Positions 21,720-44,312 of a stretch of 64,000 nt of DNA are shown piece after piece. The position numbers were made by a program, and so were the translations under genes. Every line of letters begins with the position of its first letter. Position 1 is the first letter of the stretch. This DNA is from Marinilabiliaceae bacterium. Lineage in GTDB: Bacteria; Bacteroidota; Bacteroidia; Bacteroidales; Marinilabiliaceae. The notes beneath the pieces are model-generated. The model was not told the origin of the DNA, did no database searches, and was given only the letters and a program-made list of their open reading frames with translations. The stretch lies in assembly GCA_050290065.1 (NCBI GenBank), contig JBNKGY010000001.1:16103-80102 (forward strand). Reading direction: 5' to 3'.

Positions 21720-21735
21720 TACTAAGTAAAGATCT

Positions 21736-23430: not shown

Positions 23431-23448
23431 TCAAAGTAATTTAAAGTT

Positions 23449-23760: not shown

Positions 23761-23779
23761 AAATTAATTTTAACAAATT

Positions 23780-26560: not shown

Positions 26561-26569
26561 GTGTAAATT

Positions 26570-27028: not shown

Positions 27029-27030
27029 TA

Positions 27031-27510: not shown

Positions 27511-27513
27511 CGA

Positions 27514-28383
27514 GTGGAAAAGGCCAACACATACTCAAAGGATTTAGATTGCTTTAAGGCTGAATTATCTACCAAAGATTTTGAAGCTTTTAGTCAATTT
27601 ATTTATTCTGAGTTTGGTATTAAAATGCCACCTGTAAAAAGAATAATGTTGCAAGGGCGTTTACTGAAAAGGATAAGAAATTTAAATATGAATTCCTATT
27701 CAGAGTATAAAGACTATTTGTTCAGTAAAGAGGGACAGAAGGAAGAGATATTTAATTTTTTGAATGTTGTAACCACTAATAAAACTGATTTTTTTAGAGA
27801 ACCAATACATTTTGACTATTTAAAGAGCTCTGTTTTGCCGGAATTTCTTTCAAAAGATAATAGAGAACCTTTTAAAATTTGGAGTGCAGGTTGTTCAAGT
27901 GGTGAAGAACTGTATACCCTAGCTATTACTCTGAATGAATTTAAAAGTATAAATGTAGGCTTTAATTATTCCATGTTAGGGACTGATATTTCTCAAAATG
28001 TATTATCAAAAGCAGCAAAAGGTATCTATCCACTAAATAAGGTGGATATTATTCCAATAGATTTAAAAAAGAAGTATTTATTGAAAAGCAAGGATGCCAA
28101 CAACCAAACTGTAAAGGTACGGCCAGAGCTTCAGCGAAATTTGAATTTAAAATATCTGAATCTTATGGATTCCAGTTATTCAGCTATAAATGAAAAATTT
28201 GACGCAATTTTTTGTAGAAATGTATTAATATATTTCGACCGGGCGACACAGGAAAGTGTGATTAATAAATTAAGTTCTTATTTAAAGCCAGGAGGATATT
28301 TTTTTATAGGACATTCTGAATCGTTAACAGGAATGAATGTTCCACTAGAACACATTAAACCAACTATTTTCAGAAAAAAATAA
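27514..28383 (+). CDS. cheR: CheR methyltransferase (chemotaxis type)
   Basis: TTNKTDFFRE..HF, IWSAGCSSGEE.Y, GTDIS, CRNVLIYFD, GHSESL. GTG start. Confidence 0.95.
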   Translation: MEKANTYSKDLDCFKAELSTKDFEAFSQFIYSEFGIKMPPVKRIMLQGRLLKRIRNLNMNSYSEYKDYLFSKEGQKEEIFNFLNVVTTNKTDFFREPIHFDYLKSSVLPEFLSKDNREPFKIWSAGCSSGEELYTLAITLNEFKSINVGFNYSMLGTDISQNVLSKAAKGIYPLNKVDIIPIDLKKKYLLKSKDANNQTVKVRPELQRNLNLKYLNLMDSSYSAINEKFDAIFCRNVLIYFDRATQESVINKLSSYLKPGGYFFIGHSESLTGMNVPLEHIKPTIFRKK

Positions 28384-28400
28384 AGCACAAAAAGAGAACC

Positions 28401-29303
28401 ATGAATAATTTATCAGACAGACAATTACTTAAGGAGCTTAGACAAAGGCTTGAACATGGTAAGAATAGTGAGAAGGAAATTAAGGAATTGACTCACGAAT
28501 TACAAAGTGTGTCAAAAAAGCTTAAGGATTCAGAAGCACTTAAGAGTCATTTTATATCAAATATCTCAAATGAAATAGTAAATCCGTTTACTTCGATATT
28601 AGGACTGTCAAAGGCAATTCTATCTGTTGAAAAGCATGATTGGAAAAAGGTTGTGTCAATGGTAGCATTGATTCATTCAGAAGCATTCAACCTTGATTTT
28701 CAATTGAAGAATATTTTTGTGGCCGCTAAAATTGAAGCAGGTGAAATAGCCCCTAATATTGCTAAGGTTAATATTAGAAGCTTATTACAAACGGTTGTTG
28801 ACTCTTTTAATATAATTTCCCGTAAAATGGGAATTTCAATTGATATTCAATTTAATATTGAACATGGTTTTGGAAAGAATTTTTACTTTAAAACTGATTC
28901 AGAAAAACTTAAGCTTATCCTTAGTAACCTTATTAATAATGCATTAAAATATAGTTATAAAGATAGTAAGGTAATTATTTCAATATGGCTGGATGATGAA
29001 GATGTTTTGAAAATCTCTGTTCAAGATTATGGAACCGGAATTTCTGAAAAAAATCAGAAAACAATATTTGAACGATTTAAAAGATTAGATACCGGTATCA
29101 ATTCAATAAATCGTGGTCATGGTCTTGGTCTTTCAATTACAAAAGCATTATTGGATACATTGAGTGGAGATATTGAAATAGCGAGTCAAAAAGGTGAAGG
29201 ATCAACCTTTACTATAAGTGTGCCGGAGGCCAAAAATATTGTGGACGGATTTAGTGGAGAAGGAAATGATATATTCTTTGATGAAGAGGACGAGATTTTT
29301 TAA
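28401..29303 (+). CDS. Sensorless HisKA-HATPase kinase-like protein lacking the phospho-acceptor His
   Basis: H-box reads FISNISNEIVNP (N57 in place of H); N box NLINNALKYS, G1 DYGTGI, F box IFERF and G2 GHGLGL are intact. Confidence 0.8.
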   Translation: MNNLSDRQLLKELRQRLEHGKNSEKEIKELTHELQSVSKKLKDSEALKSHFISNISNEIVNPFTSILGLSKAILSVEKHDWKKVVSMVALIHSEAFNLDFQLKNIFVAAKIEAGEIAPNIAKVNIRSLLQTVVDSFNIISRKMGISIDIQFNIEHGFGKNFYFKTDSEKLKLILSNLINNALKYSYKDSKVIISIWLDDEDVLKISVQDYGTGISEKNQKTIFERFKRLDTGINSINRGHGLGLSITKALLDTLSGDIEIASQKGEGSTFTISVPEAKNIVDGFSGEGNDIFFDEEDEIF

Positions 29304-29313
29304 TGGTGAATAG

Positions 29314-29784
29314 ATGAATCAATATTTACAACATTTTTTATATCCATCCTCTCTTTTCGTCAGCAAAGAACCTTTTTTGGTTAAAACCATATTAGGCTCG
29401 TGTGTTGCAATATGTTTATGGGATTCACGATTGAAAATAGGAGGTATTAATCATTACATGCTACCACATTGGAATGGTAATGATTTAGCTTCGCCAAAAT
29501 ATGGAAATATTGCAATAGACAAGCTAATTGATAAATTGCTTTTTCATGGATCAAGAACCGAAGATTTGCAAGCGAAAATATTTGGAGGTGGAGAATTAAT
29601 GCAAACAGGAAATTCAAGAACATTAATTGGAGAACGAAATATTCGTGTGGCCAGAATAATGCTTGAAGAAAAAAATATTCCAATTGTTGCTTCCAGTACA
29701 GGTGGAAAAAGAGGTCGAAAAATCATATTTTTTACCGATACTGGAGAAGTGAGACATAAATTATTGGATAAAAAGAACCCATAA
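29314..29784 (+). CDS. cheD: CheD chemoreceptor glutamine deamidase
   Basis: TILGSCVA, GGINHYMLP, KIFGGG, IGERN, GG..GRKI.F. Confidence 0.93.
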   Translation: MNQYLQHFLYPSSLFVSKEPFLVKTILGSCVAICLWDSRLKIGGINHYMLPHWNGNDLASPKYGNIAIDKLIDKLLFHGSRTEDLQAKIFGGGELMQTGNSRTLIGERNIRVARIMLEEKNIPIVASSTGGKRGRKIIFFTDTGEVRHKLLDKKNP

Positions 29785-29875
29785 ATGATAATTTGATTCT
29801 TAAATAAACTAAGCATCATTTTTTTTTATATATTTCTTATTAATAACATTCATTTTAATAAGATAACCTTGTACT

Positions 29876-30955
29876 ATGCGGATGAAAAAAATTCGGGTAT
29901 TAGTAGTTGATGATTCAGCTGTAGTTAGACAAAGCCTTTCAAGTATTTTAGGTTCGGACCCAGAAATAGAAGTGATGGGTACAGCGGCTGACCCTATTAT
30001 TGCTGTAAAAAAGATTATGAAGGAGATACCTGACGTTATTACGTTAGATATCGAAATGCCAAGAATGGATGGGTTAACATTCTTGCGTAAAATTATGTCA
30101 CAACACCCAATTCCTGTTGTGATTATCTCATCACTTACAAGCGAAGGTACAGAGGTAGCGATGAAAGCACTTGAGTATGGTGCTGCCGAAATTATTGGTA
30201 AACCGGCGATGAATGCCGCTAAATTTATTAATGAATCAAAGATTGTGATCTGCGATGCTGTTAAAGCAGCAGCGCATGTGAAATTATCGAGAAAGAAAAT
30301 TAAAGTACCGCCTACCAATATAGAAGTAAAACCTAAATATAGTGCTGACGTTATTCTTGAAAAAGCTTCCGTGTCAAATAGAATATCGGTAACAGATAAA
30401 GTTATTGTATTAGGAGCTTCAACAGGAGGAACTGAAGCCATCAGATCCTTTCTTAAAAATCTACCCGCAAAAATGCCTGGAATTGCAATTGTTCAGCATA
30501 TGCCTGAAGGATTCACAAGATCATTTGCTAACAGTTTAAATAACATCTGTAATTTAGAAGTTAAGGAGGCAGAAAATGGCGATAAACTTTATCAAGGTAG
30601 AGTTCTTATTGCGCCGGGAAATTACCATATGCTGTTAAAAAGAGTAGGTAAAGAGTATTTTGTGGAGGTAAAAGAAGGACCTTTGGTAAACAGGCATCGT
30701 CCGTCTGTGGATGTGCTATTTAGAAGTGCTTCAAGATATGCAGGTAATAATGCAATGGGTATTTTGTTGACCGGAATGGGAAATGATGGTGCAAAGGGGT
30801 TGTTGGAACTTAAGGAATCAGGTGCAGAAACAATAGCCCAGGATGAACAAAGTTCTGTTGTTTATGGTATGCCAAAGGAAGCAGCAAAACTTGGAGCTGC
30901 CAATCATATTTTAGGATTAGAGCAGATTGCTCCTTTCCTAATAAAGTCTCTTTAA
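29876..30955 (+). CDS. cheB: CheB methylesterase (REC plus esterase)
   Basis: [18 protein letters not shown]; triad motifs [19 protein letters not shown]. Confidence 0.96.
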
Positions 30956-31061: not shown

Positions 31062-32939
31062 GTGAAAAAGCTTGATTTAAATAACATATTAAGAAAATAT
31101 ACTTTTAGAGGAATTCTTCTTGGATTTTTTATTGTTCTAATTGTGTTTCTGTTGAATTTAAGTTCAACTGTTTTTATGCAAACAAACAGGACGTTTGCTG
31201 ATATGTTATATCTGTTCCCAGGAATGTGGATTTTATTGGTCTTACCTTTTATTACCGGACTTTTTGGATATCTGTTTGCATTAAATTTTGTAAAAATAAT
31301 TAGGAAGCAACGAAAATACATTAAAAGTGAAACCAAAAGAGCAGATAAGGTTCTAAAATTTATTAATAATTTACGTCAGGGTAATTTTAGCAGTACAGAG
31401 TTAGTTACGGATAAAAAAGATCAATTAAGCAGATCACTACTAAAATTAAGAGATTATCTTGTTAAAAGTAAAAACGAACAAGAACAAAGAAGAATAGAGG
31501 AAGAACAACGAAATTGGGTAACTCATGGGGTAGCTCAATTTGCTGAAATACTGCGTAAGAATAATGATAATCTGGAAGAACTTTCATTTAATATTATTAG
31601 TTACCTGGTTAATTACTTAAATATTAATCAGGGTGGTTTTTATTTGTTAAATGAGAATGCAAAAGGAGACAGGTTCTTTGAATTATCAGCATGTTTGGCT
31701 TTTGATAGAAAAAAATATGCAGATAAAATAATTCAATGGGAAGAAGGTTTAATAGGAAGATGTGGGATTGAAAAAGGTACTATTTATATGACTGATGTAC
31801 CCAATGATTATATTACAATAACATCTGGTTTAGGTCAAACCAATCCGTCTGCCATTCTATTAGTTCCTTTAAAGGTGAATGATGAAATTTATGGAGTTAT
31901 CGAGTTGGCTTCATTTTCTGAGTTTCAACCTTTTGAAATAGAATTTGTTGAGCGTACGGCAGAAAGTATTGCATCTACCATATCTACGGTTCAAATCAAT
32001 ATTCAGACAACAAAATTACTTCGTGAAACTCAAATTCAAGCTGAAAGAATGGCTCAGCAGGAAGAAGAGTTACGTCAAAACCTTGAAGAAATGCAGGCTA
32101 CTCAAGAAGAGTCTGATCGTAGAGAAGTTGAAATGAAAGGTATTCTTGAAGCTATTGATAACTCAGCTATTAGTTGTGAGTTTGCTGTGGATGGATCATT
32201 GATTTCGGTTAATCAACTATTTTTACAAACATTCAAATATCTTCCTGAAGAAATAGAAGGTCAGAATTTAAAAATATTGATTTTTCAGGATGATGTAGAA
32301 GACCTGAGTAAAACGCTTTCTGAACTTAAAGGAGGGCATAATTTTAAGGGAAGAGTAAGAAGAAGAACAAAACTTGGAGAAGAAATATTTCTGCTTACAA
32401 CATATACACCTGTAATAGATAATCAAGGAGACATTATCAAGATTTTGAGTCTCGAAAATGATGTTACAGATCAAGTTTACATGGAAGAGCAAATGAAAAG
32501 CTCCAAAGAGGAGCTTGGAAAAATGCTGGAACAAGCCAGAGACGAGATGAAAGAGCAGTTTAAAGAAATTGAAGATGTTAAAATTCGAAACGAAAAAACT
32601 CTTGAAGGTGCTCTTGATGCAATCATCACAACAAATGAAGAGGGGATCCTTGAATTTTTTAATGCAGCGGCAGAAAAACTCTGGGGATATGAAAGAAATG
32701 AAGTGTTGGGAGAACATATCTCCCTGTTATTTTCTGATGATACCGCTAAGAATGATCAATTTGTGAAGGCCTATGTTACAACTGAAGAATCTAAAATTAT
32801 AGGGGAAAGAAAAGAAGTACCAATAAAGAATAAATTTGGAGATGAAATACCTGTTTTATTTCTTCTTTCTGAGGCTCAGGTTGGAGGGAATAAGTCTTTT
32901 ACAGCGTTTATTCAAAATGTAGAAGTAGAGTTATTTTAA
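31062..32939 (+). CDS. Membrane GAF-coiled coil-PAS-PAS protein with no enzymatic output domain
   Basis: Two TM segments; GAF (EGLIGRC..EK, TSGLG..P, LLVPL, GVIELAS); QQEEELRQNLEEMQATQEE helix; two PAS-like repeats (N.AAEKLWGY); ends VEVELF. Confidence 0.8.
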   Translation: MKKLDLNNILRKYTFRGILLGFFIVLIVFLLNLSSTVFMQTNRTFADMLYLFPGMWILLVLPFITGLFGYLFALNFVKIIRKQRKYIKSETKRADKVLKFINNLRQGNFSSTELVTDKKDQLSRSLLKLRDYLVKSKNEQEQRRIEEEQRNWVTHGVAQFAEILRKNNDNLEELSFNIISYLVNYLNINQGGFYLLNENAKGDRFFELSACLAFDRKKYADKIIQWEEGLIGRCGIEKGTIYMTDVPNDYITITSGLGQTNPSAILLVPLKVNDEIYGVIELASFSEFQPFEIEFVERTAESIASTISTVQINIQTTKLLRETQIQAERMAQQEEELRQNLEEMQATQEESDRREVEMKGILEAIDNSAISCEFAVDGSLISVNQLFLQTFKYLPEEIEGQNLKILIFQDDVEDLSKTLSELKGGHNFKGRVRRRTKLGEEIFLLTTYTPVIDNQGDIIKILSLENDVTDQVYMEEQMKSSKEELGKMLEQARDEMKEQFKEIEDVKIRNEKTLEGALDAIITTNEEGILEFFNAAAEKLWGYERNEVLGEHISLLFSDDTAKNDQFVKAYVTTEESKIIGERKEVPIKNKFGDEIPVLFLLSEAQVGGNKSFTAFIQNVEVELF

Positions 32940-32954
32940 ATTAAAAAATAATAA

Positions 32955-33797
32955 GTGGGGGACATAACATTTAAAACGTATTTAGAAGAGCTAAAGAAGC
33001 ATACACCATATAATTTTTGTGATTACTCAGACAATTCAATTCAAAGAAGAATAGATAAAGTATTGAAGGATCACAATATGGATATGGATCAGCTTTTGTA
33101 TAAAACAAAAACTGATGCGTATTTTGTTGAAAGCCTGGTTGATGAAATTACGGTAAACACAACTGAGCTTTTTAGGAATCCTGAAACTTGGGAATATTTA
33201 TATAAGAACGTATTACCACTTCTTAACAAAAAGAAAACTATTAATATTTGGCATGCTGGATGTTCAACAGGTCAGGAAGTTTATTCTAATTTGATATTGT
33301 TGAATGAATTAGGATTAATGGACAGGGTAAAAGTGGTTGCAACTGACATTAATCAAAAGGTGATAAGAGTTGCGAAAAATGCAGAATATAATTATAGTTA
33401 CAATAGTAGTTATATTGAAGCTTATAAAACTTTGATGGATAAAGTTAATCCAAAGGCTAATAAATTTGAATATTATTGTGATATAGATGAGCATTCAGAT
33501 GTTTTTAAATTCAAAAAATTTATTGCTGAGAAGCCTATTTTTAAAAGACATGATTTGGTAGCAGAACCAATTCCCTTTTATCAGAAATTTGATATCATAT
33601 ATTGTCGTAACGTATTAATATATTTTAATCCAGAGTTACAAATGAATATTGTCCGCAAATTCTTTGATAAGTTGTATGATGGAGGAGTATTAGTTTTAGG
33701 TTCGCATGAGGCATTACATGGTTTTTTTAAAACCAGATTTATTAAGCACGGAATGGTCTATACAAAAAGTAATACATTTCATTTTAAATATAAATAG
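32955..33797 (+). CDS. cheR: CheR-family methyltransferase (intact motifs)
   Basis: ITVNTTELFRNP, IWHAGCSTGQEVYS, ATDIN, FDIIYCRNVLIYF, GSHE. Confidence 0.9.
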   Translation: MGDITFKTYLEELKKHTPYNFCDYSDNSIQRRIDKVLKDHNMDMDQLLYKTKTDAYFVESLVDEITVNTTELFRNPETWEYLYKNVLPLLNKKKTINIWHAGCSTGQEVYSNLILLNELGLMDRVKVVATDINQKVIRVAKNAEYNYSYNSSYIEAYKTLMDKVNPKANKFEYYCDIDEHSDVFKFKKFIAEKPIFKRHDLVAEPIPFYQKFDIIYCRNVLIYFNPELQMNIVRKFFDKLYDGGVLVLGSHEALHGFFKTRFIKHGMVYTKSNTFHFKYK

Positions 33798-33800
33798 AAA

Positions 33801-34607
33801 ATGGCAGTTGTTCCTACTATTTACGATATCAGGGAAATAACACCTTTGTTAAAGGAGGTACTAAATATTGATTTGTATAATTTTACGTTGTCTTTTTTGC
33901 GTAGGAGATTTGCGTTTGTTTTTAGTCAGTTAAATATTAAAAGTGTAGAAGGATTTAAAGAAGATATTAAGAAAGGTAAATTAATTGATGAATTTAGCTA
34001 TGCTTTTTCTGTTCCTGATACTGAAATGTTTAGGGATCCATCATTCTGGAGAACCCTTAAGAATAAAATTTTACCTCAATTTGGAGAAAAGCCATTTAAT
34101 ATTTGGATGCCTGATTTGGTTTCAAATGAAGAACTTTTTTCATTATTAGTTATATTGGAGCAGGATAGGCTAATCGATCAAGTAAAGATTTATTGCAACG
34201 TGGATTGTTCATTAAGGTCATTAGAACTGAAGAAAGGTTCTATTAATGGCAAAAGTATAGAAATTTCCATGCAGAATTTTAAAAGATTAGAACTAGATAG
34301 TCAATTTGAAGATTACTTTACATATGATAATAAATTTATTTATATAAAAGAAGAATTACTTAAGAATATTGAATACATAAATGGTAATTTCTTTGTAAAC
34401 GGTCCGACAGAAAATATATCTTTTTGTTTATATCGAAATAGAATGATTTACTTTAATTTAAAATTACAACAATCAGCTGAAGAGGAACTAGTGAAATATA
34501 TAGAAAAAGGCGGGTTTTTAGCTTTGGGGATTAAAGAGAAAATCAGCCAATCTAATAGAGATTTATTTGATGAAGTTGACTCTAATGAACAAATCTATAA
34601 AGCTTGA
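33801..34607 (+). CDS. Degenerate CheR-like protein (probable pseudo-methyltransferase)
   Basis: Keeps TEMFRDPSFW and RN.MIYF...LQ, but the SAM loop reads IWMPDLVSNEE instead of IWxAGCSTGEE. Confidence 0.75.
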   Translation: MAVVPTIYDIREITPLLKEVLNIDLYNFTLSFLRRRFAFVFSQLNIKSVEGFKEDIKKGKLIDEFSYAFSVPDTEMFRDPSFWRTLKNKILPQFGEKPFNIWMPDLVSNEELFSLLVILEQDRLIDQVKIYCNVDCSLRSLELKKGSINGKSIEISMQNFKRLELDSQFEDYFTYDNKFIYIKEELLKNIEYINGNFFVNGPTENISFCLYRNRMIYFNLKLQQSAEEELVKYIEKGGFLALGIKEKISQSNRDLFDEVDSNEQIYKA

Positions 34608-34618
34608 TTAAACAATAA

Positions 34619-35194
34619 ATGAATAATAAAAGAGCGTCATATTATAAAGCAGTAGTAATTGGTGGTTCTGCAGGTAGTTTTTCAGTTGTATCAAAAATTT
34701 TGGCCAATATAAAACCTGATTTTGAATATCCAATTGTGGTATGTTTACATCGTTTAAAGCATATCCGTACAGGATTATTAGAAGGGCTTAAAATTAAATC
34801 AAAACTTCCGGTAATAGAGCCTTACGATAAAGATAGTCTCAAAGGTGGAAATGTTTATTTGGCACCTTCAAATTATCATATGTTTGTTGAGTTTGATTCA
34901 ACCATTTCATTGACGGGTGAGGATGTGTTAAATCATAGCAGACCATCGATTGATTATACTTTTATATCATCGGCAACTTCATTTCGTGAGAAAATGATAG
35001 GAATTTTATTAACAGGAGCTAATAAAGATGGTGCTTTGGGAATGAAGGAAGTATTTCATAAAAGAGGATATACAATAGTGCAGGATCCGAATACTTGTGA
35101 TGTAGATACAATGCCAAAATCAGCTCTTCAATTATTTAATCCAGATGAAGTATTATCGCCAGATGCAATTATTGATTTTTTGAATAATCTTTAA
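34619..35194 (+). CDS. cheB: Stand-alone CheB methylesterase (no REC domain)
   Basis: IGGSAGS (Ser), CLHR (His), TGANKDGA (Asp), SRPSID, QDP. Confidence 0.88.
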   Translation: MNNKRASYYKAVVIGGSAGSFSVVSKILANIKPDFEYPIVVCLHRLKHIRTGLLEGLKIKSKLPVIEPYDKDSLKGGNVYLAPSNYHMFVEFDSTISLTGEDVLNHSRPSIDYTFISSATSFREKMIGILLTGANKDGALGMKEVFHKRGYTIVQDPNTCDVDTMPKSALQLFNPDEVLSPDAIIDFLNNL

Positions 35195-35198
35195 AGAG

Positions 35199-35957
35199 AT
35201 GTTAATGAATAAAAAAGAATTATTTCGATTATATATATTAGCAAGTCTTACGTTTACGATGGCCTTGATTAAGTATTTATTTGAGGATAAATATTTTATT
35301 TTTGAAATTTTGTCGTTCATACTTTTCTTAGGTATTATATATTTTGGAGATAAACTTATTAGGGTCAGAACAATTGAGAAAATTCAATTTAATAGAGAAA
35401 AAGAGAAGATAAATAGTAGTTATGAAGAAAAGATAAATCAATTAAATAATACGATTGAGCAATTAACAAAGGAGCAATCAGAACGACTTATCTTAGCTAA
35501 TGAAGTTGAATTAATTGGAGATAAAATCAATGATAGTATTAATAATATACAGCATAAGGATGAGTTGGCAAATCAGTTGTTAATTCAATTTTCTAAATAT
35601 TATGAAATTGGAATAGGAATATGTTATTTATTGTCAGAACATTCTGGAAAATTGAGCGTAAAAGGTGTCTATGGAATTCTGGATGAAGAAAAACCGACAG
35701 ATGTTGAAGTAACTGATGGATTACATGGACAATCAATTTCTGATAGAAAACCAATCATAATCCAGGATATTGATGAGAACTATTTTAATATTGAGTCTTG
35801 TTTGGGTTCTTCAAAGCCTAAGCATTTGTATTTATTACCAATTACAAAAAATGAAACCGTTATTGGTTTAATTGAATTAGCTACATTTAAAATCATTAAT
35901 ATTGAAAAGCATTGGCAAATAATCAATGATAAAATTGCAAATGTACTTATCTCATAA
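35199..35957 (+). CDS. Membrane coiled-coil-GAF protein
   Basis: Two TM segments, then a coiled coil and a GAF (DGLHGQ..., ESCLG..KP, LYLLPI, GLIELAT). Confidence 0.75.
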   Translation: MLMNKKELFRLYILASLTFTMALIKYLFEDKYFIFEILSFILFLGIIYFGDKLIRVRTIEKIQFNREKEKINSSYEEKINQLNNTIEQLTKEQSERLILANEVELIGDKINDSINNIQHKDELANQLLIQFSKYYEIGIGICYLLSEHSGKLSVKGVYGILDEEKPTDVEVTDGLHGQSISDRKPIIIQDIDENYFNIESCLGSSKPKHLYLLPITKNETVIGLIELATFKIINIEKHWQIINDKIANVLIS

Positions 35958-35966
35958 TGTGTTAAC

Positions 35967-38576
35967 ATGTTGATGAAAAGAATGATTAAGAACATTAAAA
36001 AATATATGGATTTCTCTATCCTTCAGGAACGAGATCGCTTTTTTATTATTATTAGTGTTATACTAGTTTTGTTATTGGTATGGGCAGGATTTATAAATTT
36101 TACTGGTTATCTGTTTACAATAGATTCAATTCTTAGTATTCATACTTCATGGTTAACTTGGTTTATTGATGCAATCATAGCTTTAATTCCTGTTACTTTT
36201 GTTGTTTTAATTAATTATGATCGTGAGACAAAGAAAAAATATAAAAAGGAAATAACTCGTTTAAAAGAAGGATTAAATTCTAACATTCAAATTGCGAACT
36301 TAATACGTAAAGGTGACTTCAATTCCATTTTAAATTATAAAAGTGATAATTCTGAAACTCTAGTTAGTCTTGCTAAAGATCTGCTTGAAACCAATCAGAA
36401 AGAGGAAGAGTTAAGATGGATTACAAAAGGAAAAGAACTCATCAATGATATTTTGCGAACATACAGATCTATTGATGAACTATCCATTGAACTTCTTAAA
36501 GGTATCATTACCTATAGCGGCGGTGCGCAGGGGGCATTTTATATATTAGAGGGAGATAAATTAGTTAGTCGGGCAACCTATGCTTTTAATAAACAAAGGT
36601 TTGTAAAACAAGAATATCATATTGGGAAAGGATTAGTCGGTCAGGTTGCATTCGAAAAGCAAATGATATACAGAACTGAAATTCCTGACGATTATTTTAC
36701 AATTACCTCTGGAATATTAGGCGATCAAAAACCAAGAAGTCTTGTCATATTGCCTTTATTGCAAGAGGAGGAATTGCAAGGAATAATAGAACTTGGATTT
36801 TTAAATGATCATTTTCCAACTTATAAATTAAATTTTGCAGAGGAATTGAGTAGTATGATTGGGCGAACCATTTATGCTCAAAAAATAAATGCTAAAACGG
36901 AGTATCTATTAAAAGAGTCTCAGGAAATGACTGTTACTCTTAGGCATAATGAAGAAAAATTAAAGGAAAGTGCCCAGGAAATGATGATTGCCCAGGAGGA
37001 TTTGGAAAAATCAAATGAACTACTGGAAACGAAAATTCAAGAGGTTGAAAATGGAAGAAAGAGGTTAGTGGCCTTACTAACAAATGCCTCTGAATTTATT
37101 TCAATTTATGATGAAAACCAAAGATTATTATTCGAAAGTCCTTCAGTGAAAAGAATATTAGGGTATAATGATTCTGATAAAGTTTCCGGAATGGACCCCG
37201 ATATGTTAACACCTAGAGGCTATAGAACCATTAATAATTTATTTACATATTTAAAACAAACGCCTGGAGGAGAGAGTGTTGCACAATATTCATACTTAAA
37301 AAAGAGTGGGGAAAAATTGTTTCTTGAAACTAAAGGAAAAAATTTACTTCATGATCAAGCTATTAAAGGAATAATCTTTAATACTCAGGATATTACCGAA
37401 AGAATTAGAGCAGAGAAAGAAGAACGGATGAAAAGTCGGATGCAATCACTTTCCGAAAATTCTCCGGATATGATTATGCGTATCAACACTTCTGGTAAGT
37501 TAGTATATGCAAATCCTGCAGTTAGTAATTTTACAGGTATTCCTATAGGAGAAATAACAAAGAAAAGAGTTAATGAACTTCAGATTGATGAAAGATTTAT
37601 TGATTTTGTTAATCATGTTCTGGTAAAAGTTAAAAAGGTACATGAACAAATAAATGAAGAAATAGAAGTTATTTCTCAGTATGGTAACCAGATAATGGAA
37701 ATAAAAGCTATTCCTGAATTGAATTCTGATAAAATATTGGAGTCAGTTCTTTTTGTGGCTCATAATATTACAGAGGTTAAAAAGATTGAACAAGAGATCA
37801 AAGAAAAAAATAAAAAAATATCTGATAGTATCAATTATGCACAAAGAATTCAAACTTCGATATTGCCAGATACCAATTTTATACAACGGCATTTTCCAAG
37901 ATCTTTTATCTTTTATCGTCCCAAAGATGTTGTTAGTGGTGATTTTCCATGGTTCGTCAAAAAAGATGAAACTTTTTATGTTGCAGCCGTAGACTGTACT
38001 GGTCATGGTGTACCTGGTGCATTATTATCTTTTATAGGGTATTTCTTACTCAATAATATAGTTAATATTGATGATGGATTTAATGCTGCCCATATATTAG
38101 AACATTTACATCAAGGTGTTCGAACTACATTAAAGCAAAATGAAGAAGGTAATAATGGTCGCGACGGGATGGATTTGGCTTTATGTAAAATAGACAAAAA
38201 AAATAAAGTTATTCAATTTGCCGGGGCTCATAATCCATTATATTTGCTGAGAAAAGGAGAATTGATAGAATATAAAGGAACACGTAAGGGGATTGGAGGA
38301 AAACCTTTATTAAAAAAACGTGAAAAGGATTTTGAAAATCATGAAATCCAATATCAGGATGGGGATAAGATTTTTATTTTTTCTGATGGTTTACCTGATC
38401 AGTTAGGTGGAGAAAAAAGAAAAAAGTATCAATCTAAACGAATTAGGGAAGCGCTAACTGAAAAAGAAGATCTGACAATGGCTCATTTTTCTCGACATTT
38501 TTCATCTGATTTTTATGAATGGATGGGTGATGAGAAACAAGTTGATGATGTTTTACTTATTGGAATTGAATTGTAA
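35967..38576 (+). CDS. SiaA-like PP2C/SpoIIE Ser/Thr phosphatase with TM-GAF-coil-PAS-PAS input
   Basis: SINYAQRIQ.SILP, PKDVVSGDFPW, AVDCTGHGVPGA, DGMD, FSDG..DQ.GG, DDVLLIG. Confidence 0.9.
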   Translation: MLMKRMIKNIKKYMDFSILQERDRFFIIISVILVLLLVWAGFINFTGYLFTIDSILSIHTSWLTWFIDAIIALIPVTFVVLINYDRETKKKYKKEITRLKEGLNSNIQIANLIRKGDFNSILNYKSDNSETLVSLAKDLLETNQKEEELRWITKGKELINDILRTYRSIDELSIELLKGIITYSGGAQGAFYILEGDKLVSRATYAFNKQRFVKQEYHIGKGLVGQVAFEKQMIYRTEIPDDYFTITSGILGDQKPRSLVILPLLQEEELQGIIELGFLNDHFPTYKLNFAEELSSMIGRTIYAQKINAKTEYLLKESQEMTVTLRHNEEKLKESAQEMMIAQEDLEKSNELLETKIQEVENGRKRLVALLTNASEFISIYDENQRLLFESPSVKRILGYNDSDKVSGMDPDMLTPRGYRTINNLFTYLKQTPGGESVAQYSYLKKSGEKLFLETKGKNLLHDQAIKGIIFNTQDITERIRAEKEERMKSRMQSLSENSPDMIMRINTSGKLVYANPAVSNFTGIPIGEITKKRVNELQIDERFIDFVNHVLVKVKKVHEQINEEIEVISQYGNQIMEIKAIPELNSDKILESVLFVAHNITEVKKIEQEIKEKNKKISDSINYAQRIQTSILPDTNFIQRHFPRSFIFYRPKDVVSGDFPWFVKKDETFYVAAVDCTGHGVPGALLSFIGYFLLNNIVNIDDGFNAAHILEHLHQGVRTTLKQNEEGNNGRDGMDLALCKIDKKNKVIQFAGAHNPLYLLRKGELIEYKGTRKGIGGKPLLKKREKDFENHEIQYQDGDKIFIFSDGLPDQLGGEKRKKYQSKRIREALTEKEDLTMAHFSRHFSSDFYEWMGDEKQVDDVLLIGIEL

Positions 38577-38602
38577 CGTATACGAACTAAATATTATTAG
38601 TA

Positions 38603-39178
38603 ATGGGAAATGCTCAAGATAATCATAGTTTTCTGGATTTTGCTTACCAGCTGTACCGGACTATGAAAACGAATGAAATCAGTCTTGTTTATGAAGGAGA
38701 AGTAACTCAGGAGATTACAAAAACTTTTACTTCATTAACAGAAAAAAGTCTGGCAAAAAGTGAAGAGTCAAATGCTGTTCAGCGAAAAGTATTTAACGTA
38801 ATGGTTGAATGTTTACAAAATATTAGTAAACATGCCGATTCATTATCTGAAGATGATGAAAATGAACGCAGGGGAATTGTAATGGTTAGTAAAGGTGAAG
38901 ATAGCTATAAAATTATTACAGGTAATGTAATTAGAAATGAAAAAGTACCTGGTTTAAGAGAAAACCTGGAGCAGGTCAATTCTCTTGATAAGGAGGGGCT
39001 TTCAAAGTTATTTAAAACCCAAATGCGTGAAGGTAAAATTTCCGATAAAGGAGGTGCAGGTCTTGGTTTAATTGACATTGCAAAGAAAACAGGAAGTGTA
39101 CTAACATACCAGTTTAAAGAATTAAATGAGGAAGTATCATTTTTTATTCTTACATCTACAATTAAACGAAATAATTAA
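38603..39178 (+). CDS. SiaB-family (DUF6272-like) GHKL Ser/Thr kinase
   Basis: YEGE..Q, RKVFNVMVECLQNISKH, IITGN.I, GGAGLGLIDIAKK. Confidence 0.85.
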   Translation: MGNAQDNHSFLDFAYQLYRTMKTNEISLVYEGEVTQEITKTFTSLTEKSLAKSEESNAVQRKVFNVMVECLQNISKHADSLSEDDENERRGIVMVSKGEDSYKIITGNVIRNEKVPGLRENLEQVNSLDKEGLSKLFKTQMREGKISDKGGAGLGLIDIAKKTGSVLTYQFKELNEEVSFFILTSTIKRNN

Positions 39179-39203
39179 AAAACTAATATAAAATATCAAA
39201 ACC

Positions 39204-39584
39204 ATGGAAGTTATCAATATTCAAGGAACAGATGATACTCCTAATGTAATTTTAGATAAGGACAGCGGGAAATTTGAAATTTCTGGACGTTCATTACCAG
39301 AGGACGTAAATATGTTTTATGAGCCTATTATGAAATGGATAGATGGATACTCCGAAAGTCCTAATGAGAATACTGAATTTAATTTTAAGCTAGAGTACTT
39401 TAATACTGCATCTTCAAAAATAATACTGGATATTTTACTAAAGTTCGAAGAAATAGTTGAAAATGGTAATGATGTTAAAATCAGATGGCATTATCACGAA
39501 GAAGAGGAAGATATGCTTGAAGCTGGTGAAGAGTATGCAGATATAGTTGAAATACCATTTGAATACGAAGCTTACACTGATTAA
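39204..39584 (+). CDS. SiaC-family (DUF1987) phospho-switch protein
   Basis: T..TP.V, ISGRSLPED...FY.P, LEYFNTASSK (Thr68), W.Y...EEDM.E.GEEY. Confidence 0.88.
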   Translation: MEVINIQGTDDTPNVILDKDSGKFEISGRSLPEDVNMFYEPIMKWIDGYSESPNENTEFNFKLEYFNTASSKIILDILLKFEEIVENGNDVKIRWHYHEEEEDMLEAGEEYADIVEIPFEYEAYTD

Positions 39585-39614
39585 TACAAGATTACTTGTT
39601 GCAAACTTTAATTT

Positions 39615-42600
39615 ATGAGTGAAGAAATACTAAAAGCCCTTATGCAACTGTTTGGATTAATAGCCAAACAGGATGATGGAGTACAGGAAAGTGAAATAGA
39701 ATTTGTTAAAAACTTTTTGAAGCAGCAACTCACAGCAGAAGCTGTAGATGAATATTTCACGCTATTTCAGAAACACTCAAAAAATAAAAAAAGCAGTAAT
39801 TCAAATAACGATGGTAAGGTTCAACTTACCTCAATGAAAGATTCTGTTCGGATAATTGGAATCTGCAAAAAAATAAACAAGCAGCTTAATAAAGAGCAAA
39901 AGGTTGTTGTATTAGTGCGTATGTACGAATTAGTAAATGCTGATCGTAAATTTACTGATCAACGTATGGCTATTATCAATACTGCTGCCGATGTTTTCAG
40001 ATTCTCTGAGATTGAAAAGAAAAATATAGAGGCGTTTGTTATTAATGAAGATCTCAAAAATCTCGACTTCGAGAATTTATTAGCCATTACTGCAAATGAC
40101 AAACAAGGAGAATATAGAGAGCACATTCAGGCTAAAAAATTAGATGGAAGCATTCTAATATTAAGGGTGAAAAGTGCAGATTTATATTTTCTAAGATATA
40201 CCGGTACTCAGGAAATATTTTTAAATGGTTTATTATTAAGCCAAAGACGTATTTATCTCTTCCCCAAAGGAAGTTTTTTAAAGTTACCTGCAAGAGCACC
40301 TATTTATTATACTGATGTAGTTGGGCATTTTATGACTGACGCATCAACACCTAAAATCTCTTATATAGTTGAAAATTTGGGTTTTCAATTTAAAAATGGA
40401 GGAATTGGTTTAAGAGATGTTAATCTGGCAGAAGAACATGGTAGATTAATTGGTATAATGGGTGCGAGTGGTGCTGGAAAAACAACTCTGCTAAATGTTT
40501 TATCAGGAATTGAAAGCCCTAGTTCTGGTGAGGTTAGAATAAATGGTATAAACCTGCACAAAGAAAGGGAAAAAATTGAAGGCGTTATTGGACTGATTCC
40601 TCAAGATGATCTTTTAATCGAAGAACTTACTGTTTTTGAGAACTTATATTATAATGCAAAGTTATGTTTTAAGGATAAAGCTGAAGAAGAGCTTATTCAA
40701 ATGGTTAATGATACTTTGCAACATCTAGGTTTATATGCGCGTAAAGATTTAAAGGTTGGATCACCATTGAATAAAATGATTAGTGGAGGCCAACGTAAAA
40801 GGTTAAATATTGCGTTGGAATTAATACGAGAACCCTCCATTTTATTTGTTGATGAACCTACATCAGGATTATCCTCCAGGGATTCAGAAAATGTAATGAA
40901 CCTTTTAAGGGAATTAACTCTAAAAGGGAAATTGATTTTCGTTGTTATTCATCAACCCTCTTCAGACATTTATAAAATGTTTGATAAGATGTTTATCCTT
41001 GATACTGGAGGATACCCAGTATATTATGGTAATCCTAGTGAATCTCTAATCTATTTTAAAAGATTAGATGCTCAGATCAATAGTGAACAAGGTGAATGTC
41101 CCCAATGTGGTAATTTAAATCCTGAAATGGTATTTAATATCATTGATGCTAATGTAATAGATGAATACGGAAACTACACAAATAAAAGAAAAACCAGTCC
41201 TCCTGAATGGAATGAACATTATCTGAAAAATATTAAAATTCCAAAGGTAAAAGATGTGGAATCTTCGCCTCCTCGTTCTTTAAATATACCTTCGTGGTTA
41301 AAACAATTTAATATATATACGCTTAGGGATTTCTTTTCAAAGATATCGAATAAGCAATATATACTTCTTAATATTCTAGAAGCACCCATATTAGGGTTTA
41401 TATTGGCCTTTTTAATCAGATATATAGTAGACCCGGATTCAAATATTTACATTTTTCGCGATAACGAAAATATCCCGCCATATATTTTTATGGGTATTGT
41501 TGTTGCTTTGTTTTTTGGATTAATTGTAAGTGCAGAAGAAATATTTAAAGATGCTAAAATACTTAAAAGGGAAGCATTTTTGAATCTTTCCAGATCTAGT
41601 TATTTAGTTTCAAAGGTGTTGATTCTTTTTACTATTTCTGCAATTCAAATGGGTTTGTTTGTGGGAGTCGCAAATACTGTTCTGGGTATAAAGGAAATGT
41701 ATTTTGAGTTTTGGTTGGCTTTGTTTTCTGTTTCTGCTTTTGCCAATATTCTTGGATTAATATTATCAGCTTCCTTTAATTCTATTGTTACCATTTATAT
41801 TTTAATTCCTCTGGTAATGATTCCTCAGATGGTTTTGGGAGGTGCAATGTTTACTTTCGATAAATTAAATAGAGACATCTCAAGTGCCGATAAAGTACCT
41901 TTAATAGCAGAGTTTATGCCCTCAAGATGGATTTATGAAGGATTAATGGTAGATCAGTACAAAAATAATAAGTTTCAACAATTATTTTTTGATGTAGAAC
42001 AAGAAGAAAGTACTACCGATTTTAAGGTGGTGTATTATATACAAGAGCTTGAAGATATTTTAGATGAATGTGAGAATTACCTAACCAATGGCAAACCAGA
42101 AGAAGAGAGAGAAGATTTTATCTCAAATCTAAAATTGTTGAAAAATGAAATTGAAAATGAAAACCGCAGAATTAATGATATTCAATTTGTAAAGGTTGAT
42201 CAACTTTCAGAAGATCATTTTAATAATGATATAAAATCAGCTTTAGCTATTCATTTAGAAGCATTAAAAAATTATTATTCAGATCGTTTTTTTGCGGCTA
42301 GTACAAAAAAGGAGAAAATGATTAATCTGGCCATGAGAAAATATGGTAAAGAGAAATATAATGCCATAAAAGACATATACTTAAATGAAAGCATTGCAGA
42401 TATTGTAAGAAAAGTTTTTGAAAAAAATAAAATCCTTCGAGATGGAGATAGACTGATCCAAAATGTTGATCCAATATATCAGTTACCAGAATCAGAAGGT
42501 GTTTTTTCTTTTAGAACTCATTTTTTTGCGCCTAAAAAGTATTTCATGGGTCATTACTACGAAACGATATGGTTTAATATTGCAATGGTATGGTTATTTA

Positions 42601-42686
42601 CTATAGTTCTTTATATCATTTTGTATTTTGATTTATTACGCAAATCCTTTATTTTCATTGGAGAATTAAAATATCTTAAAAAGTAA
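39615..42686 (+). CDS. ABCG/White-like fused ABC transporter with TerB-like and FHA-like N-terminal region
   Basis: GASGAGKT, PQDD, ISGGQRKR, FVDEPTSGL, IHQP; ABC-2-type TM block (PLVMIPQMVLGG, PSRW.YEGL); N-terminal LF.LIAK.DD helical domain. Confidence 0.85.
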   Translation: MSEEILKALMQLFGLIAKQDDGVQESEIEFVKNFLKQQLTAEAVDEYFTLFQKHSKNKKSSNSNNDGKVQLTSMKDSVRIIGICKKINKQLNKEQKVVVLVRMYELVNADRKFTDQRMAIINTAADVFRFSEIEKKNIEAFVINEDLKNLDFENLLAITANDKQGEYREHIQAKKLDGSILILRVKSADLYFLRYTGTQEIFLNGLLLSQRRIYLFPKGSFLKLPARAPIYYTDVVGHFMTDASTPKISYIVENLGFQFKNGGIGLRDVNLAEEHGRLIGIMGASGAGKTTLLNVLSGIESPSSGEVRINGINLHKEREKIEGVIGLIPQDDLLIEELTVFENLYYNAKLCFKDKAEEELIQMVNDTLQHLGLYARKDLKVGSPLNKMISGGQRKRLNIALELIREPSILFVDEPTSGLSSRDSENVMNLLRELTLKGKLIFVVIHQPSSDIYKMFDKMFILDTGGYPVYYGNPSESLIYFKRLDAQINSEQGECPQCGNLNPEMVFNIIDANVIDEYGNYTNKRKTSPPEWNEHYLKNIKIPKVKDVESSPPRSLNIPSWLKQFNIYTLRDFFSKISNKQYILLNILEAPILGFILAFLIRYIVDPDSNIYIFRDNENIPPYIFMGIVVALFFGLIVSAEEIFKDAKILKREAFLNLSRSSYLVSKVLILFTISAIQMGLFVGVANTVLGIKEMYFEFWLALFSVSAFANILGLILSASFNSIVTIYILIPLVMIPQMVLGGAMFTFDKLNRDISSADKVPLIAEFMPSRWIYEGLMVDQYKNNKFQQLFFDVEQEESTTDFKVVYYIQELEDILDECENYLTNGKPEEEREDFISNLKLLKNEIENENRRINDIQFVKVDQLSEDHFNNDIKSALAIHLEALKNYYSDRFFAASTKKEKMINLAMRKYGKEKYNAIKDIYLNESIADIVRKVFEKNKILRDGDRLIQNVDPIYQLPESEGVFSFRTHFFAPKKYFMGHYYETIWFNIAMVWLFTIVLYIILYFDLLRKSFIFIGELKYLKK

Positions 42687-42742
42687 CCTTTTTAGAGGTT
42701 TGGAGTATAACTTAATTGTTTTGAATATTAAAAAGACCTATC

Positions 42743-43666
42743 ATGTTAAAGAAATTATTGTACACAACGGCTATATTATGTGAGATTTTACTTTTCTCTG
42801 CATGTACTGGAAATTCCGGAAAGGGAAGCAGTGCAGGTGCAGATGATTTCTCTATTTCAGATTCTGCATTAAATCAGGATGCTCCATTACAACTTTCAGA
42901 AGAAATTATTGGTGATGTAATTCAAAATATATCCTCACCGGTTGAAATGGCTGCATTAATTAAAAAGTCTGGAGTAGATTTTTCTCAGAAAATCCTGAAT
43001 AAGCCTGAACGTATTCAAGATTATAATACAAGCTTTAAAAGAGCTTTAAATTTAGGTGTGTTTAGTGCCGATTTAGGATACATAAATACCTTTGATAAAA
43101 ATACTATTGTTATTTCTTATTTATTATCTATTAAGGAACTCTCCGAAGGTATTAAAGTAGGGCAGTTTTTTGATTTCAATTCCCTTAAGCAATTAGCCAC
43201 CAATAGTAATAATTTGGACTCGTTAATGGAGATTTCTGTTAACAGTTTTAATAAAATGGATTCATACTTAAGAGAACAAAATAGAAGCAACGTTAGTACT
43301 TTAATTGTTACAGGAGCATGGATTGAAGGATTATATATTGCAGGAAATGTGATTAAAGAAACAAAAAATCAGGAGTTGATTAATCGTATTGGTGAGCAAA
43401 AAGATATCATTGATATTTTACTTATTGTTTTGAATAACTTTAGTAGCGATCCTAACTTTGCTGAAATGGTTACCAGAATGGAACAAATTAAGCAAGCTTA
43501 TTCAGGAGTAAAAATTACAACAGAAGTCGGTGAACCAAAGAGTATTGAAAGAAATGGTACTTTAATAATTGTTCAGGATGAAATTAGTCATGTTGAAATT
43601 ACTCAGGAACAAATTGATTTAATTATAAAGGAAATTTCCAATTTAAGAGATTATATTGTGTTGTAG
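42743..43666 (+). CDS. Uncharacterised helical lipoprotein
   Basis: Lipobox FSAC followed by a Ser/Gly linker; repeated helical motifs (ALNLGVFSADLGY, GAWIEGLYI). Confidence 0.7.
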   Translation: MLKKLLYTTAILCEILLFSACTGNSGKGSSAGADDFSISDSALNQDAPLQLSEEIIGDVIQNISSPVEMAALIKKSGVDFSQKILNKPERIQDYNTSFKRALNLGVFSADLGYINTFDKNTIVISYLLSIKELSEGIKVGQFFDFNSLKQLATNSNNLDSLMEISVNSFNKMDSYLREQNRSNVSTLIVTGAWIEGLYIAGNVIKETKNQELINRIGEQKDIIDILLIVLNNFSSDPNFAEMVTRMEQIKQAYSGVKITTEVGEPKSIERNGTLIIVQDEISHVEITQEQIDLIIKEISNLRDYIVL

Positions 43667-43685
43667 GCAATTTAAATTTATAAAT

Positions 43686-43693
43686 TATCTTTG
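43686..43693 (+). promoter_or_regulatory. Bacteroidota -7 promoter element
   Basis: TATCTTTG, about 165 nt upstream of the 43857 ATG. Confidence 0.45.
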
Positions 43694-43856
43694 CTGGCAA
43701 ATAATATCATTATTAACAGGAGTTTGGTTAAGGTGGATGAACTGAGAGTAAACTTCCTGTAATTATCAAATTTTAAATAATGGAGTTGTACCAATTCAAT
43801 AATGGTATTATTATTGAGATAAGTCCATTTGAATTTAAGCATTAAAATTTAAACAA

Positions 43857-44312
43857 ATGAAAAAGGTATTTATTTTATCCATATTACTTATTTCTATATT
43901 TTCCATTTCAGGTTCTGCACAATGTGGAGAAGATTTACTGAAAACAGCACTCAAAGAAATGGGTGATACGCAGTATATCAAGGATTTTACCATTAACTTA
44001 ATGCAGGACAAAAAAGATGTTAAAACTGGTTATGTGAAGTTTAGCGTTATATTGAATAGTAGGAGCCATTATAAATTTAATACCGTAAATGGGGTAGGTA
44101 ATCCTGAAAAGGTTATTATGCAATTATATGATGGAGATAAGCTTCTTCATTCAAATTTTGCAAATGGGAAAATGTATGATGCTATTGAATATGTTTGTAG
44201 AAAAACAAAAGTCTATAGTTTAGTTTTTTCATTTAAAGGAGGTGCAGAAGGTTGTGCTAAATCAGTAATGTCTTTAGTTAAACAATATTCTGCCGGAGAA
44301 ATGAATTTTTAA
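43857..44312 (+). CDS. Small exported hypothetical protein with three Cys in the mature part
   Basis: Sec signal ending near SAQ; Cys in AQCG, YVCR and EGCA. Confidence 0.65.
   Translation: MKKVFILSILLISIFSISGSAQCGEDLLKTALKEMGDTQYIKDFTINLMQDKKDVKTGYVKFSVILNSRSHYKFNTVNGVGNPEKVIMQLYDGDKLLHSNFANGKMYDAIEYVCRKTKVYSLVFSFKGGAEGCAKSVMSLVKQYSAGEMNF

Follow-up and report, generated by a model that had tools for sequence, protein, structure and literature searches.

A conserved Bacteroidota gene cassette joins CheR- and CheB-type methylation enzymes to a Sia-like phospho-switch and an ABC transporter

The window analyzed here, a 64,000-nucleotide stretch of a Marinilabiliaceae genome (contig JBNKGY010000001.1, positions 16,103 to 80,102), carries at 31062-44312 a module of eleven genes, termed g1 to g11, in which CheR- and CheB-type methylation enzymes stand beside GAF-domain receptors, a Sia-like threonine phospho-switch and an ABC transporter with exported proteins. 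The part of this module from g2 to g11 is a conserved autonomous unit. We propose, with a probability of about one half, that the methylation enzymes tune the Sia switch through a helix in its GAF receptors, and that the switch in turn gates g9-g11. A preliminary description of this DNA, made from its letters alone, had listed eleven co-oriented genes here; all eleven open reading frames (ORFs) were found on the plus strand across 31062-44312, and the domain order given for g1-g11 agreed with the results from Pfam, transmembrane (TM) prediction, lipobox and structure comparisons.

Relatives of the module were collected with a profile from a g3-family alignment, which was scanned against ~185,000 species genomes. 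At least 587 species genomes encoded relatives of g3, a pseudo-CheR, and g3 homologues formed one tight Marinilabiliales group and one more distant tier. The best 80 loci were retrieved and annotated, together with six further loci, by ORF calling and by phmmer searches with 22 window proteins. The preliminary description had set conservation of gene order in relatives as a test of its reading; the order from g2 to g11 was identical in 85 related loci, wherever the contig was long enough, with median intergenic gaps of 3–59 bp, and this conservation is far beyond chance. Upstream of g4 the loci fell into several types. Forty loci of the Marinilabiliaceae type (type A; Saccharicrinis, Plebeiibacterium, Labilibacter, Marinilabilia, Anaerophaga, Thermophagus and Breznakibacter) had a Che cluster followed by g1, g2 and g3. 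The order was g2, g1, g3, with no Che gene in the retrieved flank, in 24 loci (type B), and nine loci (type C) had g2 and g3 with g1 absent altogether. Two more loci were in the A order (g1, g2, g3) yet had no Che genes upstream, and the loci outside this tally were interrupted by the ends of contigs. This leaves g2-g11 as the invariant core, with g1 as an accessory co-receptor and the Che cluster as a neighbor specific to one lineage. Since 35 loci (24 of type B, nine of type C and the two in A order) had no Che gene within ~6–10 kb upstream of the cassette, the cassette is autonomous. Its most conserved members were SiaC (g8), SiaB (g7), g9 and g10. A metagenome-assembled genome labeled Chlorobiota (locus L025, JAADEM010000066.1) also displayed the full Che-plus-module arrangement typical of Marinilabiliaceae, with a 66% identical g10; either an error in binning or labeling or a horizontal transfer may account for this.

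Three genes of the module encode CheR- or CheB-type proteins. The g2 protein (32955..33797) matched the CheR family of Pfam with 138 bits, and its S-adenosylmethionine (SAM) motifs (IWHAGCSTGQE, ATDI and CRNVLIYF) were intact in the alignment, by which we judge it to be a catalytically intact CheR-type methyltransferase. The adjacent g3 (33801..34607) gave a weak CheR match of 56 bits. Its glycine-rich SAM loop, AACSTGEE, is replaced by W-x-P-xxx-S-xx-E-L-F-S with an invariant Pro, and this replacement was kept in 25 family members with identities as low as 27%; across the same 25 sequences the column of the SAM-ribose-binding Asp was variable. What g3 does keep is a basic helix at the N-terminus (F-L-R-R-R) and the motif RN-x-x-Y. 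Because the loop replacement is conserved and the SAM-ribose Asp is lost, g3 is to be regarded, on its sequence, as an old, selected and catalytically dead pseudo-enzyme. The third protein, g4 (34619..35194), is a stand-alone CheB methylesterase/deamidase consisting of the catalytic domain only. Its Ser-His-Asp triad is intact (GGSAGS, LHR and KDGA align with the motifs of the CheB structure 3SFT), and Pfam placed no receiver domain in it, so that no phosphorylation-dependent feedback on g4 is expected. No HisKA, HATPase_c or Response_reg domain was detected by Pfam in g1-g11, where the PP2C phosphatase is fused directly to a sensor, and no MCP (methyl-accepting chemotaxis protein) signaling domain, CheA or CheW was found within 31062-44312 or in the 35 stand-alone loci.

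The relationship of g2 and g3 to other CheR proteins was assessed with five CheRs sampled from the non-module tail of the g3 match list. All five (5/5) directly follow the gene of a GAF hybrid kinase, and no other module gene is shared. In loci L006 and L088, a CHASE3-GAF-histidine kinase (HK)-receiver (REC) protein is followed by CheR, CheB and REC-HK; in L087 and L090, both from Peribacillus, a 4HB_MCP-HAMP-GAF-HK-REC protein is followed by CheR and REC-PP2C, which is the RsbK-RsbM-RsbY order; in L089 (Rhodoferax), CheR follows GAF-HK-REC. Each of the five linked kinases has, as do g1 and g6, an LL-x-E-[ST]-Q...EE[LM] heptad helix directly after the GAF domain, and the Peribacillus helix begins with LLKESQ, the same as in g6. 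In BLAST comparisons, g2 scored 117–142 bits against the GAF-kinase-linked CheRs versus 83 bits against CheR1 of its own genome, and g3 scored 83–108 versus 54 bits. The top g2 score, 142 bits, belonged to a Peribacillus CheR in a locus of RsbK-RsbM-RsbY order. The signature IWHAGCSTG is common to g2 and the GAF-kinase-linked CheRs, and the loop of g3 is replaced at this place. By these alignments, g2 and g3 belong to the RsbM clade, as compared through the Peribacillus CheR and not through Bacillus cereus RsbM itself. The two Peribacillus loci (L087, 5190-9989; L090, 5171-10257) have a 4HB_MCP sensor where RsbK of B. cereus has CHASE3, and in L087 the REC-PP2C gene lies on the opposite strand.

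In the sigma-B module of B. cereus, whose gene arrangement L087 and L090 share, RsbK has the layout CHASE3-HAMP-GAF-S-helix-HK-REC and is methylated on the S-helix by the CheR-like RsbM, as measured in a 14C-SAM assay (PMC4574943). This methylation represses signaling to the REC-PP2C protein RsbY and the RsbV/RsbW partner switch (PMC4574943; PMC12848376). RsbM is an orphan without a cognate esterase, and deletion of the chemotaxis CheB had no effect (PMC4574943). The same paper refers to 127 kinases of the RsbK kind, spread over 10 phyla (PMC4574943). A cluster of CHASE3/GAF kinase, CheR, CheB and kinase, BmsA, is known genetically from Pseudomonas (PMC8175716). Because RsbK/RsbM/RsbY is already published, it is not new that a GAF sensor other than an MCP is methylated ahead of a PP2C partner switch, and the module cannot be called a wholly new principle, as it had first been presented (PMC4574943). 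The preliminary description had also named a published system of this architecture as grounds for giving up its reading; the principle has such a precedent in RsbK/RsbM/RsbY, and this architecture has none, the literature searches on SiaC with CheR, on CheR substrates other than MCPs and on CheBR having returned nothing relevant or only noise. The module can be described as a presumably methylatable sensor of the RsbKM type combined with a Sia-type switch. Its dedicated esterase, conserved dead methyltransferase, sensor-phosphatase fusion, Sia switch and presumed transporter output are undescribed in such a pathway.

The candidate methylation substrates are the two larger GAF receptors. Based on Pfam and TM prediction, g1 (31062..32939) is a membrane-anchored protein with two TM helices separated by a loop of ~20 aa, followed by a HAMP-like region, GAF, S-helix and two PAS domains, and it has no output domain. 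The g6 protein (35967..38576) has the layout 2TM-HAMP-like-GAF-S-helix-PAS-PAS-SpoIIE/PP2C and ends in a SiaA-type phosphatase. Outside the catalytic parts, no segment of either protein is more conserved than the linker between GAF and PAS. The S-helix of g1 (31995..32147, plus strand), a candidate methyl-accepting site, reads Q333-E-E-E-[LM]-R-Q-N-[LM]-E-E-[ML]-x-A-T-Q-E-E350, and its 17 specified positions are invariant in 68 orthologues with the exception of A346 (67/68); the motif stays fixed while overall g1 identity drops to ~30%. The corresponding helix of g6 (36900..37034, plus strand; residues 312-356) reads LLKESQ...N-E-E-x-L-[RK]-x-N-A-x-E-M-x-x-[TA]-Q-E-[ED]-L-x-x-S-N. The Glu pairs of both helices are spaced by seven residues, that is, by one heptad, and the E-E-M-x-A-T of the g1 helix (E-E-x-x-A-T) matches the classical MCP methylation consensus. 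The strict motif was present in 70 of 75 g1 ORFs and 30 of 86 g6 ORFs, compared with none of the 840 other unassigned ORFs in the loci, and the motif string appeared in none of the searched literature. In types B and C the g6 helix has the full consensus NEE[EQ]LRQNAEEMRATQEEL (EEMRAT form), and in type A it is g1 that keeps the full motif; therefore, no module type is without a consensus helix. Since g2 and g3 are of the RsbM clade, the helix is of the RsbK type and the CheR adjoins a GAF sensor in 5/5 outside contexts, the GAF receptors are the likely substrates, a reading with strong circumstantial support from sequence. The remaining GAF protein, g5 (35199..35957), is a small TM-coiled-coil-GAF protein with a weak GAF_2 match (29 bits; cutoff 28.6) and no S-helix. 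It is the least conserved module member (22–38% identity) and was rejected as a methyl acceptor for its poorly conserved coiled coil and the absence of the motif.

The three proteins g6-g8 make up a switch of the SiaA-SiaB-SiaC type known from Pseudomonas aeruginosa. Among PDB structures, the C-terminal 258 aa of g6, comprising the PP2C domain, matched only SiaA (6K4E, E=6e-36), and SiaA was also its best NCBIfam model (175 bits, through the PP2C part only, against an equivalog cutoff of 700). The g7 protein (38603..39178) is a SiaB-family protein kinase (DUF6272 = SiaB family) that matched SiaB (6KKO_A, E=5e-15) and passed NF038262, SiaB_fam_kinase, with 176 bits versus a cutoff of 85; it fell below the SiaB equivalog model, with 88 bits versus 225. 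For the SiaC-family phosphoprotein g8 (39204..39584), the PF09345 (DUF1987) score was 142 bits versus a cutoff of 24.5, and it matched SiaC (6KKO_C, E=1e-17) with NT[AS]S aligned; its score against the NCBIfam SiaC equivalog was 88 bits, below the cutoff of 150. The g8 segment Y-F-N-T68-A-S-S-K was unchanged in 75/75 orthologues, and N67/T68 align with the published residues of P. aeruginosa SiaC that act as phospho-acceptor and in partner binding (PMC8457831). No GGDEF domain or SiaD cyclase was found in the module proteins, among the surveyed window ORFs or in the module of any of the 85 loci. These structure matches for g6-g8, with no GGDEF in g1-g11, are in good agreement with the earlier statements that the module holds a Sia-like Thr phospho-switch and no diguanylate cyclase. 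In locus L004, two extra SiaC paralogues lie in tandem (2357-3228) beside a gene for a beta-propeller protein, ~4 kb upstream of a stand-alone module.

Directly after g8 comes g9 (39615..42686), an ABCG-like half-transporter in which TerB (residues 3-143) and a divergent FHA-like beta domain (155-230) precede the ABC ATPase and the ABC-2 membrane domain. Pfam scored ABC_tran at 110 bits and ABC2_membrane at 70 bits, and TIGR00955 gave 245 bits, below the cutoff of that model. Six TM helices were predicted plus one terminal TM, the latter in a C-terminal extension of ~240 aa. The N-terminal 262 residues, a constant part of g9, occur only on this kind of ABC protein and were modeled, with a predicted local distance difference test (pLDDT) score of 84, as a TerB helical bundle and a small beta domain. 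In Foldseek, the top PDB matches of residues 155-230 were all FHA domains, although with weak values (E ~1e-2, TM-score ~0.45–0.5 over ~80 residues), and S187 and N204-G205 are conserved in the domain. A canonical FHA domain that binds phosphothreonine (pThr) and reads phospho-SiaC was considered for g9 and was rejected in view of Leu190 and the missing Gly-Arg. The two following genes encode a highly conserved helical lipoprotein, g10 (42743..43666), whose lipobox Cys21 is invariant, and a small exported protein with an N-terminal signal-like helix, g11 (43857..44312), which is present in all complete loci. Neither g10 nor g11 matched a Pfam or NCBIfam family; the g10 family comprises ~4,500 clusters at 90% and is 62–98% conserved across genera. 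The g8 and g9 genes were adjacent in 79/79 loci having both, with a median gap of 34 bp. Chen et al. proposed that DUF1987/SiaC proteins modulate the product of an adjacent gene, and SiaC docks on parallel helices (PMC8457831). The g8-g9 adjacency, the proposal of Chen et al. and the conservation of SiaC, SiaB, g9 and g10 together suggest that SiaC gates the transporter. We consider the odds even that the phosphorylation state of SiaC controls export by g9-g11.

In the mechanism that we propose for the module, g2 would methylate and g4 would demethylate the heptad-spaced Glu residues on the GAF-PAS signaling helix of g6 and of the accessory g1, the same reaction as that of RsbM on the post-GAF S-helix of RsbK. 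The level of methylation would set how strongly intracellular cues sensed by the GAF and PAS domains switch the fused PP2C on or off, and the balance between the g6 phosphatase and the SiaB kinase (g7) would set the phosphorylation of SiaC (g8). SiaC would then bind or release the TerB/FHA-like N-terminal region of g9, which, working with the exported g10 and g11, would gate the export of an envelope or small-molecule substrate. The pseudo-CheR g3 would most likely bind this helix as well, acting without catalysis as an adaptor, a competitor or a reader; the adaptor or reader role is speculative. Of the separate parts, reversible methylation of the S-helix by g2 and g4, with tuning of the fused PP2C, seems to us somewhat probable.

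Several observations weigh against this proposal. The 51-aa helix of g1, searched alone against 1.84 billion representatives, retrieved 810 representative clusters and is thus a general feature of a large GAF family. A g6-type GAF domain was present in 142 of the top 150 matches, and a fused CheB or CheR domain was present in none of these 150. In Pfam analysis of 49 of the top matches, the shared families were Cache/PilJ/PDC sensors, HAMP, GAF and repeated helix-PAS units, with no recognized transmitter domain among them. The helix therefore appears, from its sequence, to be the hallmark of a large output-less receptor family that includes g1, so the helix alone is no proof of methylation, and the EE-heptad helix could be purely structural. 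The g6 helix of type A loci, this window among them, has drifted to NA-[RQ]-E-M-M-I-A-Q-E; with the full motif kept in g1 of the same loci, the drift may mean a division of labor between g1 and g6. The g6 and g8 proteins fall below the NCBIfam equivalog cutoffs and therefore are, by these scores, family members of SiaA and SiaC and not orthologues. The AlphaFold model of g10 (pLDDT 66) had no PDB fold match (best E 0.58), and the FHA-like domain of g9 has an invariant Leu190 instead of the canonical His and no in-register Gly-Arg, so that pThr binding by this domain is unsupported. Within the helix family, up to nine repeats of a near-invariant QEEE[LM]RQN[LM]EEL-x-ATQEE were seen, usually one before each PAS domain. 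EELQST-like repeats in CheB-CheR fusion kinases were not used as evidence. A far-reaching extension, in which the invariant helix is a general methyl-accepting element and the more than 800 output-less receptor clusters of Cache/PilJ/HAMP-GAF-(helix-PAS)n layout, g1 among them, form a second, MCP-independent methyl-accepting class, serviced by RsbM-clade CheR and stand-alone CheB with a pseudo-CheR that reads the methylation state and couples it to effectors such as the SiaA-type phosphatase, strikes us as improbable. If true, it would provide genuine reversible adaptation for partner-switch and transporter outputs in non-flagellated Bacteroidota.

The CheR/CheB trio might instead modify g5, SiaC, SiaB, the helical regions of g9 (TerB or C-terminal) or a target elsewhere, with the EE helix serving in structure or docking. 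The 810 GAF-protein clusters with the same helix, 0 of the top 150 with fused CheB or CheR, and the partial divergence of the g6 helix in type A would fit this, as would the binding of SiaC to parallel helical stalks, which could make the helix a SiaC docking site (PMC8457831). We nevertheless regard it as unlikely: the closest characterized CheR relative acts on exactly the post-GAF helix (PMC4574943), the CheR adjoins a GAF/S-helix protein in 5/5 outside contexts, and g5 is poorly conserved. A different substrate again could come from the complete chemosensory cluster at 21195..30955, which is co-oriented with the module (plus strand) and encodes, in order, a YfiR-like protein, an MCP (HAMP and MCPsignal), CheY, Hpt, CheA, two CheW proteins, CheR1 (with CheR_N), a sensor-less HK, CheD and REC-CheB1. 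This cluster ends 106 bp before g1, and no terminator was called in the gap; hence it could supply or share substrates, which is a further point against our proposal. The earlier statement that the module has no MCP, CheA, CheW or response regulator accordingly holds only inside 31062-44312, with a complete Che cluster directly upstream. Within our proposal, the Che pathway that has been joined upstream in Marinilabiliaceae may act on the output of the module or share its regulation. The cluster has an unusual composition: the YfiR/HmsC-like protein with which it starts is periplasmic, the Hpt protein is separate and precedes CheA, and the HisKA-HATPase kinase of 300 aa between CheR1 and CheD is kept in all 40 linked loci. 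The MCP shows, by eye, EE-x-x-[ST][ST] sites and a C-terminal NYEKF, which resembles an NWETF-type CheR/CheB tether.

Read from this neighbor, g2-g4 would serve in adaptation as additional enzymes, acting on the MCP encoded next door or on other MCPs, the Sia and ABC genes would be the downstream part of one long Che operon, and the output would run through CheY or the embedded kinase. The short, terminator-free distance on the same strand, the Che-module linkage conserved in 40 loci, and the methylation-like sites and tether-like C-terminus of the MCP speak for it. We consider it very unlikely, since the Che cluster already owns CheR1, CheD and REC-CheB1, 35 loci lack a Che gene within ~6–10 kb upstream, g2 and g3 are closer to the RsbM-type GAF-kinase-linked CheRs than to CheR1, and the module has no receiver domain to take a CheA signal. 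At the output end, the Sia switch could regulate an unlinked cyclase or another enzyme, or feed back on g1/g6, with g9-g11 as co-transcribed cargo. The missing canonical pThr-binding residues of the g9 FHA-like domain and the two extra SiaC paralogues of L004, away from any transporter, are consistent with such a target. It appears doubtful all the same, given that g8 and g9 are adjacent in 79/79 loci with both, that g9-g11 never separate from the switch, that only this transporter family has the TerB/FHA-like N-terminus, and that no GGDEF cyclase turned up among the module proteins or the window ORFs surveyed. Methylation-tuned gating of g9-g11 by the Sia switch is the reading that we carry forward.

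As for the boundaries of the module, the tight spacing described earlier was reproduced, with intergenic gaps of 3–56 bp except for 190 bp ahead of g11. The strong terminator reported at the end was likewise called, as a bidirectional intrinsic terminator with an 11-bp stem at 44333-44362, which closes the module. Scans for sigma-70-type promoters, a type that does not cover those of Bacteroidota, were uninformative, with fewer matches than in shuffled sequence. The sequencing runs containing the window were of DNA type only. Elsewhere in the window, the minus-strand region downstream of the module (45421-50738) encodes a beta-propeller protein of 914 aa and a type IX secretion component resembling PorZ, in keeping with a Bacteroidota host. 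The 607-aa product of 52398-54221 has a Y_Y_Y region together with class III adenylate/guanylate cyclase and HD domains, and its gene adjoins one for a universal stress protein. The genes for the F-type ATP synthase do not lie together: one alpha/beta-family subunit is encoded on its own at 14925-16436 (minus strand), ~40 kb from the a, b, delta, alpha and gamma genes at 55218-60121 (plus strand), ahead of which lies a bactofilin gene (54423-54803).

Textbooks treat CheR and CheB as adaptation enzymes of MCPs alone; to our knowledge, the orphan RsbM is the one exception that has been shown biochemically. In the cassette described here, a methyltransferase of the RsbM kind comes together with a dedicated esterase and a conserved, catalytically dead paralogue, and the candidate methyl-accepting helix sits inside the phosphatase that would drive the SiaB/SiaC switch. 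Hundreds of Bacteroidota species from the sea, from sediments and from gut-associated settings carry the module, with Saccharicrinis, Labilibacter, Plebeiibacterium and Anaerophaga as cultured hosts. If confirmed, the proposed mechanism would make reversible Glu methylation a portable gain control for Ser/Thr phospho-switches, beyond CheA pathways, and regulated export by an ABCG-type pump would be the first non-cyclase output of the SiaC family.

Compared with known systems, the module shares its enzyme families with canonical and alternative-function Che pathways, of which a complete example lies directly upstream, and its candidate sites follow the canonical pattern of MCP adaptation, with heptad Glu/Gln pairs and small residues at +4/+5. 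It differs from these pathways in having no MCP signaling domain, CheA or CheW and a CheB without receiver, and in that its helix is a GAF-PAS linker and not part of a four-helix MCP bundle. In the BmsA-type clusters (L006 and L088), a paired CheR and stand-alone CheB are encoded beside a GAF sensor whose post-GAF helix is of the EE-heptad kind, and no MCP, CheA or CheW accompanies them. Their output is a two-component phosphorelay, however, and they have no pseudo-CheR, Sia switch or transporter; within the searched literature, genetic phenotypes (biofilm, motility) only are given for the BmsA cluster. With P. aeruginosa SiaABCD, the module has in common the homologous PP2C (SiaA), kinase (SiaB) and phosphoprotein (SiaC), including the N67/T68 motif. 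In contrast to SiaABCD, it has no SiaD cyclase, its phosphatase has GAF, S-helix and two PAS domains in place of the N-terminal region of SiaA, CheR, pseudo-CheR and CheB are added, and its SiaC adjoins a TerB/FHA-like ABC transporter.

The likeness to RsbK-RsbM-RsbY (PMC4574943; Chen et al. 2012, cited therein) extends along the pathway. In that system, the CheR-type methyltransferase belongs to the clade of g2 and modifies a sensor other than an MCP; its substrate, the EE-heptad helix directly after GAF, is homologous to that of g1/g6, and a downstream PP2C phosphatase drives a kinase/antagonist partner switch. RsbM lacks a partner methylesterase, whereas the module encodes its own CheB along with a conserved pseudo-CheR. 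As a hybrid histidine kinase, RsbK signals through a phosphorelay to a REC-PP2C protein, whereas helix and PP2C are one polypeptide, with neither HisKA nor REC, in the module. The partner switch is RsbW/RsbV(STAS) in the one and SiaB/SiaC in the other, and the output of the Rsb system is a sigma factor, whereas that of the module is apparently a transporter.

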